Of a stretch of DNA of 46,889 nt, positions 19,084 through 42,838 are shown in pieces; the first letter of the stretch is position 1, and the number at the start of each line of letters is the position of its first letter. A program made the position numbers and the translations under genes. Source of the stretch: a virus (taxonomy: Duplodnaviria > Caudoviricetes); IMG/VR virus record IMGVR_UViG_3300037125_000004, positions 1-46,889 of that record; one strand, 5' to 3'. Under the pieces are notes generated by a model, which had not been told where the DNA came from, did not search any database, and worked only from the letters and a program-made list of their open reading frames with translations.

Positions 19084-19214
19084 GGCAGGGTGGCAGAGCG
19101 GGGAATTGCTGAGGTGCCGGGCGGTGATAATGAGGCGGGTTCCGGTTCGATACGTGGAGGCCACAGAATGAGTGCAAGGCTCACAAATTGCGGGTTCAAA
19201 TCCTGCCCCTGTCA
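19084..19214 (+). ncRNA. tRNA-like RNA with ~65-nt insertion replacing the anticodon loop
   Basis: Acceptor GGCAGGG/CCCTGTC, D-arm GCA-GAGCGGGGAAT-TGC, stem TGAG/CTCA, T-arm GCGGG-TTCAAAT-CCTGC. Confidence 0.65.
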
Positions 19215-25707: not shown

Positions 25708-26427
25708 ATGGCTGGCTGGATTAGCATATATAGATCAATTTGGAATAACTGGGTATGGCAAGAGAAACCATTTTCAAAAGGGCAAGCATGGGTAGACCTG
25801 CTTTTGTTGATGGGGCATGAGGACGGAAAGGTTGTTTTTAGACAAGAAGTTATCCCAGTTAAACGAGGGCAAAAAGTAACAAGCGAATTGAAGTTATCGG
25901 AAAGATGGGGCTGGAGCAGGAACAAGGTCAGGGCGTACCTAGAACGGCTAAAACAGGACAACATGATAGACATCAAAAAGGACAAGAGAAAAACCATTAT
26001 AACCATTGTAAATTATGACGATTACCAGGGAGAAAAAAAACGAAAGGTACAACAGAAAGTACAACAGATTGAACAACAGGAGGTACAACAGGAAGTACAA
26101 CAGTCGGACATAAACAATAAAGATAATAAGGATAATAAATATATTATATACGGTGAACTTGGAAACGTGAAATTGAAGGACGGTCAATATGAGAAGCTGG
26201 TGCAAGATCATGGACAAGTTGTGATAGATGATTTCATACAGAGAATCGATTACTACGTTGCATCAAAGGGAAGAAAGTACAAGGATTACTACGCTACCGT
26301 CAAGGCATGGATTCGGAGAGAAGAAAAAAAAGAAAAAGAAAAAGGACGGGGCAAGATGGGATTCGGCGACTTCACGCAGCGGGACTACTCCGAGAAAGAA
26401 CTCGAAGAACTGATTGATAACAAATAG
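25708..26427 (+). CDS. Replication initiator (replisome organiser)
   Basis: MAGWISIYRSI...ITIVNYDDYQ; C-terminal KYKDYYATVKAW and FTQRDYS; internal iterons. Confidence 0.85.
   Translation: MAGWISIYRSIWNNWVWQEKPFSKGQAWVDLLLLMGHEDGKVVFRQEVIPVKRGQKVTSELKLSERWGWSRNKVRAYLERLKQDNMIDIKKDKRKTIITIVNYDDYQGEKKRKVQQKVQQIEQQEVQQEVQQSDINNKDNKDNKYIIYGELGNVKLKDGQYEKLVQDHGQVVIDDFIQRIDYYVASKGRKYKDYYATVKAWIRREEKKEKEKGRGKMGFGDFTQRDYSEKELEELIDNK
26047..26150. repeat. Replication origin: five iterons G(T/A)ACAACAG at 12-nt period plus AT-rich tract
   Basis: Copies at 26047, 26059, 26071, 26083 and 26095. Confidence 0.75.
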
Positions 26428-32766: not shown

Positions 32767-33006
32767 ATGGACATACGAGAAAGCCTTATATTAAATCCTT
32801 TGCCAGATGATATACAAGAGGCTATCAGACGTGTTAGAATACGTCACAACACAAGCAAAGCGTTTGAAGTGTTCCGTATGCGGTTTATTGAAGGGCGGCC
32901 CTATGACGTGATAGCGGAAGCGAGACACTACGAGATAGGGACATGCAGGAACTACGCAAGCAGAATCATGCAGGAAATTGAGGCGGAAGTAGAGAATATA
33001 ATTTGA
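32767..33006 (+). CDS. Sigma region-4-like HTH protein (possible late activator)
   Basis: VFRMRFIEGRPYDVIAEARHYEIGTCRNY; last early gene. Confidence 0.65.
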   Translation: MDIRESLILNPLPDDIQEAIRRVRIRHNTSKAFEVFRMRFIEGRPYDVIAEARHYEIGTCRNYASRIMQEIEAEVENII

Positions 33007-33032
33007 CAGGAACGTATGTTCTATGGTATAAT
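33003..33032 (+). promoter_or_regulatory. Consensus SigA promoter with LexA box in spacer
   Basis: TTGACA-18-TATAAT with extended TG; GAACGTATGTTC at 33010-33021. Confidence 0.85.
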
Positions 33033-33038
33033 ATGATG

Positions 33039-33263
33039 AACTTGTGAAAGCGTAAATGCGCCGTAGCTGGTGTAAGGCTCTGTACTATCGAAGGTCTACG
33101 TGCCACGTGGAGTAGTATAGCGGCAGCTATCTAGGTAGTATGGGGCCATACGGAATTGCGGTGAGTGTTTGCGGACACCACTTAAGGTAATCGGATGCGT
33201 CCGGTTTCCTGCCTTATCGGGCGAAAAAAGAAAGCCGGGCGATTAAACCCGGTTTTTCTTTTC
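33039..33263 (+). ncRNA. Structured small RNA (~220 nt) of unknown family
   Basis: Own promoter and terminator, no ORF with RBS, multiple nested stems. Confidence 0.7.
33224..33263. terminator. Bidirectional intrinsic terminator
   Basis: AAAAAAGAAAGCCGGG-CGATTAAA-CCCGGTTTTTCTTTT. Confidence 0.8.
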
Positions 33264-33410
33264 TGATTCTTCCTCTTGTACTTTATTGATTTTATCTATT
33301 ACTGATAACTCTATAATTTGTGCTTTAGGGATCCTAGTCTCTTTAGAATATTTTGAAATCCAATCCCATACAGCGGGATCAATGGTAATCGTTATTTTTT
33401 TTCGGGACAT
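33243..33410 (-). CDS. Ribbon-helix-helix DNA-binding protein (55 aa)
   Basis: Translated manually: MSRKKITITIDPAVWDWISKYSKETRIPKAQIIELSV...; RBS AAGGAGG. Confidence 0.75.
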   Translation of the reverse strand: MSRKKITITIDPAVWDWISKYSKETRIPKAQIIELSVIDKINKVQEEESEKKNRV

Positions 33411-33466
33411 TTTTTCGCCTCCTTATTTGTAAATAATACAATATAACCGGGGATATTGCTAGTGGA

Positions 33467-33616
33467 TTAGGAACATTGAGCAGCCTCTTCGATTATTTCA
33501 ATTGCCAGTGTGAGCCCAGAAGCTTTACCCCGCCAATAGTCAGGGCTTTTACTTATCTGCATTTGTTCCCAATATTCTTTGCGTTGTTCCGTGAGTTTTT
33601 TCAATATCTCGTTCAT
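33467..33616 (-). CDS. Hypothetical 49-aa protein
   Basis: RBS AGGAGG; MNEILKKLTEQRKEYWEQ...YWRGKASGLTLAIEII. Confidence 0.6.
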   Translation of the reverse strand: MNEILKKLTEQRKEYWEQMQISKSPDYWRGKASGLTLAIEIIEEAAQCS

Positions 33617-33638
33617 GGTTCATACCTCCTATCAATTT

Positions 33639-33699
33639 ACGGGGTGCTGACCGTGCCGTTTCCGGCCCCGCATTACCGGCCCGAAGGCCGTCAGTCTGC
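33639..33699 (-). ncRNA. Twister ribozyme (P5-type permutation)
   Basis: GCA-GACTGA-CGGCC-TTCG-GGCCG-G-TAA-TGC-GGG-GCCG-GAAA-CGGC-ACGG-TCAGCACC-CCGT: P1-P4 plus both pseudoknots (CUG/CAG, GGG/CCC). Confidence 0.8.
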
Positions 33700-33966
33700 G
33701 TATTTGCACATGTAGAAATGGACTTTTCCGTCTTTTATTTCGTGGGTGCAGCTTTCCCACACACCGTAATACAAAAACCACACAATACCATCGAAATCAT
33801 TTATGTACTCGAAACCCAGTTTTTTTAGACCACGACGCAAAAGCTCATTAATTGAATCGTTACCATTCTCCCACTTTACATTAAAAAACGGAGTATGGGC
33901 AATAGGTTCGCCGTGTGGCTTTCGATCGTTGAAGTCTTTACAAAGTTTATTAAAATCCATCTTCAT
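33691..33966 (-). CDS. Hypothetical protein (91 aa)
   Basis: RBS AAGGAGG; stop codon lies inside the twister. Confidence 0.7.
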   Translation of the reverse strand: MKMDFNKLCKDFNDRKPHGEPIAHTPFFNVKWENGNDSINELLRRGLKKLGFEYINDFDGIVWFLYYGVWESCTHEIKDGKVHFYMCKYAD

Positions 33967-33987
33967 TCCCTCCTTATTTAATATAGC

Positions 33988-34048
33988 CTATTTTCATCAG
34001 TACCGGGAGGCTATCTCCGGTAGACGGGCCGAAGCCCGTTTCGATTAG
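33988..34048 (-). ncRNA. Type II hammerhead ribozyme with degenerate stem II
   Basis: CTAATC-GAAA-CGGGC-TTCG-GCCCG-TC-TACCGG...CCGGTA-CTGATGA-AAATAG; core intact, stem II has two mismatches. Confidence 0.75.
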
Positions 34049-34266
34049 TTGATATTGTGAGCGTCCATATAAGCTACCACTTTTTTGATCCGGTCCTTTA
34101 TCTCGCTAACTTTTTTCTCGTCCTCCGCAATCCACCGCCTGCTGTCCTCGTCCCCGTATAATTCAAAGCACTTTTTACTGTCTGCAAGTTTCTTTTCTGC
34201 CTTTGCAAGGGTTTCGTTCCACTCCATCATTGTAATCTCTCGCTTGGTTCCCGTTAAAATTTGCAT
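34045..34266 (-). CDS. Hypothetical coiled-coil protein (73 aa, MQILTGTKRE...)
   Basis: RBS AAGGAGG; upstream promoter TTGCAT-16-TATAAT at 34297-34324. Confidence 0.7.
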   Translation of the reverse strand: MQILTGTKREITMMEWNETLAKAEKKLADSKKCFELYGDEDSRRWIAEDEKKVSEIKDRIKKVVAYMDAHNIN

Positions 34267-34403
34267 CGTGTTTACCTCCTTGCTTTTGATATTCTCATTA
34301 TACCGCAAAATACAGACAATGCAAGAGAACACAAGGGGAACAAATTGTAAATAAAGTGTGAACAAATCGTACATAAAATGATTATATCTGGATAGTTGGT
34401 AAC

Positions 34404-42042: not shown

Positions 42043-42742
42043 TTTAGCTATTATTCCCGCTAGAGCAGGATCAAAGAGAGTGCCGGGTAAAAACACTCGG
42101 TTGTTATGCGGAAAACCTCTCATTCAGTGGACGGTAGAAGCGGTGGAACAGTCACAGTATATAAAAGACTATGTAATATCAACAAATATACCATTTGTGC
42201 TTGACACATACGAAAAAATAATGGAACGTCCCGAGCGGTTATGTGGCGATGATGTGCCCATGGCAGAAATTATTAAAGACGTTTTACTTAGATACCTATA
42301 TATAAAATTTTTTAACGGCGAACACCCGGAAAGGCCATTGAGAAACATAGTGTTGCTACAACCATCAAGCCCGATGCGAACAGGAGAAGATATCGACAAT
42401 GCTTATTTTTTAGAGAGAAAAGCAAATGAAGGACAGCCGTTCGGTGGGCGCGTACCTGTTGTTAGTGTATGTGAAACAACGGCAAAAAAACGAATGTATG
42501 CAGATGATGAAAAGCCAATGGGAGAACAGACGGCATATGATAAAGGCAAAGATAAAACATGCTATCAAAGAAACTCTGCAATATTTATTTTTCAAGCCAT
42601 TAGGTTTATTGAAACCAACCAAATTATTCACGATGATCCAATACTCTATAAAATGCCAAAATCCCGCTCAATAGACATAGACACAAAAGAAGATTGGGAC
42701 ATGGCAGAAGCGTTGATGAAAGCAAAACTAGCAAAAACATAA
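42035..42742 (+). CDS. neuA: CMP-N-acylneuraminate synthetase (NeuA family)
   Basis: IIPARAGSKRVPGKN, LLQPSSPMR, YQRNSAIFI, SIDIDTKEDW. Confidence 0.93.
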   Translation: MIDLAIIPARAGSKRVPGKNTRLLCGKPLIQWTVEAVEQSQYIKDYVISTNIPFVLDTYEKIMERPERLCGDDVPMAEIIKDVLLRYLYIKFFNGEHPERPLRNIVLLQPSSPMRTGEDIDNAYFLERKANEGQPFGGRVPVVSVCETTAKKRMYADDEKPMGEQTAYDKGKDKTCYQRNSAIFIFQAIRFIETNQIIHDDPILYKMPKSRSIDIDTKEDWDMAEALMKAKLAKT

Positions 42743-42838
42743 TCATTTTATGTACGATTTATGTATTACTATTGACATTTATATCGGAATATGAAACTGT
42801 AAAAGAGGAAAAAACTAAACAGAGGTTTTAAACTGAAT

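Follow-up and report, generated by a model that had tools for sequence, protein, structure and literature searches.

The window analysed here is a whole phage contig of 46.9 kb bounded by a 127-nt terminal repeat. This repeat, together with genes for an integrase, an endolysin, a portal protein, a terminase and an SSB, identifies the contig as a temperate phage, to which the closest cultured phages are related at only about 30% terminase identity. A 1.1-kb cassette on the minus strand separates the early region from the terminase; in the order of transcription, it comprises ORF73, a type II hammerhead, ORF91, a twister, ORF49, an Arc-like regulator and a terminator-like hairpin. The first gene, ORF73 (34045..34266, minus strand), encodes 73 aa and has 114 matches including the window's own records; one match and several ORF73 loci bear a Clostridia label, and such labels do not fix the host. 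A candidate cassette promoter (34297..34324, minus strand) was recognized by eye from a weak -35 element, a 16-nt spacer and a perfect -10 element, and is absent from the consensus promoter scan. On the other side of the twister, the SD-led ORF49 (33467..33616, minus strand; 49 aa) starts 22 nt 3' of the ribozyme motif. Its sole match is a 100%-identical record, and its status as a gene is read from its Shine-Dalgarno (SD) sequence and position. It is followed by a ribbon-helix-helix (Arc-like) regulator of 55 aa (33243..33410, minus strand; PHROG 3180, E 1.9e-7; Pfam RHH_3, E 3e-5) and by a hairpin resembling a terminator on both strands (33230..33257), which closes the cassette and is weak evidence when taken alone, as two such hairpins were found against 2.1 expected in shuffles.

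Several further elements were noted around the cassette and elsewhere in the window. On the plus strand, a DUF3800-VIII RNA motif (33074-33149; Rfam, 57.2 bits, gathering score 40.2) is preceded by a promoter with a perfect 12/12 sigma-70-type match (33003-33032), and this unit converges on the ribozyme cassette at the two-way terminator-like hairpin. The function of the DUF3800-VIII family is not known according to the passages of PMC5737381 drawn on here. A perfect 22-nt inverted repeat is found at 34364-34385 and 42739-42760, 8.3 kb apart; its copy just upstream of the cassette is possibly an operator site. In the replication region, an array of short repeats with a 12-nt period (26036-26103) possibly represents origin iterons. 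Finally, a weak Rfam tRNA match (19084-19214, plus strand; 29.2 bits) contains a long insertion, and ARAGORN finds no tRNA.

The upstream hammerhead

The type II hammerhead motif (33982..34046, minus strand; Rfam RF02276, 44.1 bits, gathering score 37) begins inside the stop codon of ORF73. It lies 280 nt upstream of the twister, brackets ORF91 together with it and had been missed by the earlier note. Its core is present, as is a 7-bp pseudoknot between loop I and the 3' tail, and the predicted cut falls after C34023. The first pair of stem II is an A.C mismatch, which counts against an excision by hammerhead and twister; weak stems II do occur in natural hammerheads (passages of PMC3088659). 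A conserved hammerhead behind ORF73 was not found, as a hammerhead core follows the stop codon in none of 20 distinct homologue loci and no ORF73 homologue locus has an Rfam hammerhead match. A single CTGA-N-GA match (L092; one of 21 loci, among them one partial match) was rejected because it lies in a coding region. Likewise, the custom twister model, applied to 23 ORF73 loci, detected only one twister (L095), 1.9 kb from the gene. Similar ribozyme arrays occur in relatives, with three twisters in L055 and, in L046, a pistol plus two twisters, of which one does not reach the gathering score.

A GC-rich hairpin recurs immediately 3' of the stop codon in loci with an ORF73 homologue (L085, L100, L101, L102, L103 and L003), and a similar element is found in L007 (390-420). 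These hairpins have no Rfam match, are often located just 5' of a Shine-Dalgarno sequence and possibly represent an undescribed intercistronic RNA motif.

Fold and class of the twister motif

The twister motif spans 62 bases (33639..33700, minus strand). The earlier note had read it as a twister, and Infernal places it in the type-P5 class, with a full-length Rfam match to Twister-P5 (RF02684, model 1-58, at 33700-33639) of 40.3 bits and E 4.5e-5 against a gathering score of 37.6 bits. The motif opens with P2, formed by 33700-33697 and 33672-33669; this stem had been recognized before as UGC/GCA, with three instead of four base pairs, since base 33700 was overlooked. P2 is followed by the catalytic GA (G33696-A33695) and by the first strand of pseudoknot T1, in which CUG (33694-33692) pairs with CAG (33649-33647). 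The UUCG-closed P1 (33690-33686 with 33681-33677) and the GAAA-closed P3 (33666-33663 with 33658-33655) are in the sequence as described earlier, and so is the predicted U-A cleavage site at U33675/A33674, which follows from the position in the Rfam alignment and from the site in passages of PMC5408937 and lies 16 nt 3' of the ORF91 stop codon. Pseudoknot T2 consists of the two GG/CC pairs of 33668-33667 with 33644-33643, and P4 joins 33654-33651 to 33642-33639. Thus, the two pseudoknots of the earlier note do pair, while its CUG(A)/(U)CAG and GGG/CCC overcount each by one, T1 having three pairs and T2 two; the additional A/U and the third G/C belong to P1, L4, P2 and P4. In twister crystal structures, a trans A.A pair extends the three Watson-Crick pairs of T1, and T2 consists of a dinucleotide (passages of PMC5408937).

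The conserved positions of the class are all present, namely G33696, A33674, U33650, A33645 and the pair G33651-C33642; the roles of the general-base G, of the general-acid A at the U-A site and of the conserved L4 positions are described in passages of PMC5408937. The strand order, the 4-bp P2, the GA, the 3-bp T1 and the 2-bp T2 are those of the type-P5 twister (RF02684; passages of PMC5408937), with which the motif also has the U-A site, P4 and the optional P3 in common. On every feature that can be judged from sequence, the motif is a type-P5 twister. No clear P5 stem is seen in it, unlike in type-P5.

In isolation, the minimum-free-energy fold of the motif consists of the nested twister stems P1, P2, P3 and P4. 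The folding energy is ordinary for this base composition, with a z of -0.65 and an equally good value in 52 of 200 shuffles. All five pseudoknot pairs are Watson-Crick, though the Rfam model leaves pseudoknots unscored, and it is because of the model score and of these five unscored pairs that the motif is not regarded as a chance match. A search of the window with the custom twister model revealed no further twister. Among the sequencing runs found to contain 33200-34400, none is an RNA run, and the DNA run X1 may be the source of the window. A 151-nt contig of depth 2 in run X2 matches 33630-33663 and then diverges, and was rejected as too thin to count.

The earlier note had furthermore held that covariation supports the fold, which was confirmed by pattern scans of viral contigs in which the partner bases were left free. 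In the 15 loci with a first T1 base other than G, T1 is Watson-Crick throughout (CUG/CAG in 10, ACG/CGU in three, CCG/CGG and AUG/CAU in one each). The scan for the common form returned 124 loci from 22 of 64 parts of the viral collection, and in 120 of the resulting 122 distinct matches T2 is Watson-Crick at the free position. An alignment of 46 rows, pattern-selected, chosen for variety and only illustrative, has T1 paired in 100% and T2 in 97.8% of the rows, and its covariation score was reached by none of 500 shuffles. As far as pairing in these sequences can tell, the pseudoknot changes are compensatory and confirm the twister fold. They are not unique, as might be gathered from their earlier description as unusual: T1 of the window is CUG/CAG versus GUG/CAC in most viral type-P5 matches, but by the scans CUG/CAG is common to a small subfamily with ten other viral loci, and GG/CC forms T2 in 41 of the 122 viral matches. 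A loose-pattern scan gave 54 distinct matches, mostly due to chance, of which 11 with full P1, P2 and P4 pairing were retained by eye. In six of 11 CUG/CAG relatives (L014, L046, L062, L071, L073 and L074), the twister is followed on its 3' side by a promoter-like sequence with an inverted repeat and not directly by a Shine-Dalgarno sequence; in these six, a transcription unit possibly ends at the twister.

The one core deviation of the motif is C33646 in L4, a substitution for the A that would complete the trans A.A pair. An A occupies this position in 107 of 117 motifs, and a C in eight of ten CUG/CAG relatives as in the window. The exchange of A for C at this pair is tolerated without a loss of cleavage, and about 94% of 2625 natural twisters are active in vitro (passages of PMC11662667); moreover, replacement of T1 by other pairs is mostly possible (PMC5113685). 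For these reasons, the twister, a real member of type P5, is probably active.

When 10-60 nt of flanking sequence are included, the nested model, which does not score pseudoknots, lowers the probability of P4 to 0.07 or less and favours a hairpin that joins L4/P4 to the Shine-Dalgarno region 3' of the motif. Such a hairpin would be expected if the motif were an inactive or poorly active passenger, persisting as a hairpin and recombination seam while L4/P4 pairs with the SD region, a reading that appears quite improbable. It could draw on the predicted openness of the SD region, which reaches only 0.40 in the 3' product of the window against 0.57 when the ribozyme is shuffled, as well as on a weak partial match in L007 (11.1 bits, E 0.37) suggesting that decay may occur at such sites. 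Nevertheless, every catalytic and pseudoknot position is preserved in a motif of 71% GC within a genome of 40% GC, and the five pseudoknot pairs lie outside the nested model. For 127 phage twisters, the predicted openness of the SD region is higher with the authentic ribozyme (0.63) than with shuffled versions (0.58), and SD sequestration was therefore rejected as a conserved twister trait.

ORF91 and stop codons at the ribozyme edge

The last 10 nt of ORF91 (33691..33966, minus strand; 91 aa) are located inside the twister, where its final Ala-Asp-stop codons sit on P2, GA and T1; the catalytic strand does contain the end of the gene and its TGA, as first noticed in the earlier note. Three homologues with 62-74% identity end in Phe-x-Asp, in register with the Tyr-Ala-Asp of ORF91, and they mark ORF91 as a real gene. 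With regard to its function, PHROGs and Pfam gave no match and the Atlas no usable match. Two further candidates, L001 and L002, were dismissed as homologues because their matches extend over only 10-20 residues. Only three homologue loci are readable, one of which (L008) ends 54 nt past the match, and neither Rfam nor the custom model detected a significant twister after the homologue in any of these three metagenome loci. In L009, the homologue ends in Phe-Ala-Asp-stop and no twister is found there, with a twister-sister upstream instead; seven of ten bases are common to this gene end and the first ten bases of the twister. An older overlap may have left a trace in the C-terminus of the ORF91 family. 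The weak partial match in L007 mentioned above is situated 70 nt downstream of the homologue. At 415-483 of this locus, a twister-like 3' half with complementary T2 and L4 is accompanied by a separated or interrupted 5' strand, and the element may be a decayed or rearranged twister.

The position of stop codons was surveyed for 144 phage twisters, comprising the matches of both pattern scans and the window after removal of duplicates, as judged by a 20-nt flank, and of motifs with less than 240 nt upstream. Genes were called by simple ORF-plus-SD rules, with an SD-led ORF of at least 45 codons; the scan patterns favour motifs with a built-in TGA (106 of 144). Nine twisters lacked such an upstream ORF. 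Among the remaining 135, the upstream gene stops 0-2 nt before the motif in 63 cases and on the built-in TGA at +10 in 29, including the window. The latter overlaps mostly concern real genes, since, among 57 control cases whose gene ends in a different frame, an ORF of this kind was present in the +10 frame only once. The proteins ending on the twister TGA have Ala-Glu or Ala-Asp as their C-terminus. After related proteins had been clustered, 57 of 127 stops were found at -2..0, 27 at +10 and altogether 110 within -12..+10 of the motif; the median gap between the 3' side of the twister and the next start is 27 nt. By these gene calls, the stop-codon overlap is genuine yet ordinary, being found in roughly a fifth of related phage twisters. 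A search of literature titles and abstract starts, in which most subscription papers were out of scope, returned none on such an overlap.

The overlap geometry behind the gating idea of the earlier note is not retained among relatives. Of the 11 closest CUG/CAG relatives, only one overlaps a stop codon; in eight the stop precedes the motif by 0-2 nt, and two are unclear. None of the three ORF91 homologues is followed by a significant twister. In seven groups that share the same ribozyme and downstream flank, the stop offset differs within six; the members L116, L140 and L172 of one such group have offsets of -4, 0 and +10 behind three unrelated genes. The seventh group has an offset of 0 throughout, with two different upstream genes.

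Putative message processing and gene exchange

The type-P5 twister likely cuts the message 16 nt past the ORF91 stop, and the overlap most likely came about as a side effect when genes were swapped. In this scheme, we infer transcription, cleavage, the effect on mRNA stability and the swapping history. The polycistronic message of the minus strand would be cut on both sides of ORF91, by the twister immediately 3' of the gene, at U33675/A33674, and by the hammerhead immediately 5' of it. With the predicted cuts after C34023 and U33675, an RNA of 348 nt (34022-33675) would be released as a single-gene mRNA. Upstream pieces would each end in a UUCG hairpin with a 2',3'-cyclic phosphate and downstream pieces would start with a 5'-OH, and after the cuts each cistron might have a lifetime and stability of its own. 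Genes would be exchanged at the 5' edge of the ribozyme, the first ten bases of which read Ala-Glu/Asp-stop in one frame, so that an incoming gene can end there and the overlap would arise in passing. Gene swapping is favoured over a selected gate because the offsets vary when upstream genes change and because three homologues have no twister.

The same two cuts would leave ligatable ends (5'-OH and cyclic phosphate) around one whole gene, and the genes between ribozymes vary between phages. It is conceivable on these grounds, and very improbable all the same, that the excised gene-sized RNA is circularised and then functions either as a stable mRNA or as an intermediate in gene cassette mobility. 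For tandem prophage hammerheads, spliced and circular products were sought and not detected (Perreault et al., passages of PMC3088659), and neither a ligase nor a reverse transcriptase is among the 23 phage proteins checked.

The position of the stop codons allows for another alternative to gene swapping. The footprint of a terminating ribosome would reach the strand of P2, GA and T1. Such a ribosome could act as a timer, covering these elements and permitting folding and cleavage only while translation of the upstream gene is weak, which we consider unlikely; it is just as doubtful that selection keeps stops at the ribozyme 5' edge for this gating. The sharp clustering of the stops, in contrast to the wider spacing on the 3' side, fits a timer, as does the folding model, in which P2 is lost when the first 10-25 nt are forced to be unpaired and native P1 as well from at least 16 nt onwards. 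However, loss of pairing under such a mask is trivial and silent on selection. The clustering, which was assessed without a control for compactness, is explained by compact packing, yet ribosome coupling predicts the same. Structure hinders initiation and not termination, and compact packing would thereby give the same asymmetry. Moreover, a ribosome covers the strand equally with stops at -1 or 0, so that the overlap adds nothing specific, and the exact offset is lost on gene swaps and among the CUG/CAG relatives. Tandem prophage hammerheads also cleave in vivo (passages of PMC3088659). Accordingly, gating by ribosomes is physically plausible and, as a selected feature, without support.

Gating and exchange could also be combined. 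Twisters would then be portable separators of cistrons and a seam for the exchange of upstream genes, with the translation load setting the cutting rate of each cistron, a proposal of low probability. In the same tentative reading, unrelated genes would, in about one in five cases, take their final two residues and stop codon from the first ten bases. Nearly nine in ten twisters would sit under a terminating ribosome, a claim to be held with equal reserve.

The preferred reading of a twister that cuts between cistrons, with an overlap left by gene swapping, can be compared to two described systems. Clustered prophage hammerheads likewise bracket one gene of a temperate phage, without a known function (Perreault et al. 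2011, passages of PMC3088659), and they cleave in vitro and in E. coli (passages of PMC3088659). There as in the window, the identity of the gene is variable and single-gene mRNA processing has been proposed (passages of PMC3088659). Unlike in these arrays (passages of PMC3088659), the pair of the window is mixed, consisting of a hammerhead II and a twister. In addition, both ribozymes of the window begin in a stop codon; the passages of PMC3088659 drawn on here contain no mention of stop codons. The glmS ribozyme likewise cleaves itself upstream of a gene, which is there followed by decay of the message by RNases (passages of PMC6765202). It requires a metabolite cofactor and is located in a 5' UTR (passages of PMC6765202), whereas the window's twister is intercistronic and no ligand is known for twisters. 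Processing of polycistronic messages by ribozymes has been proposed and is still undefined, and the role of self-cleaving ribozymes of bacteria and phages other than glmS is still open (passages of PMC6765202).

Against this background, the locus adds one more twister of a known class to an already described type of phage cassette. It offers a compact test case, with a pair of unlike ribozymes, both located at stop codons, in a cassette of only 1.1 kb. More can be gained from the survey than from the locus itself: stop codons cluster at the 5' edge of twisters, and unrelated proteins owe their Ala-Glu or Ala-Asp ends to the ribozyme. Should translation prove to tune cleavage, this would be a general mechanism for many phage ribozymes.
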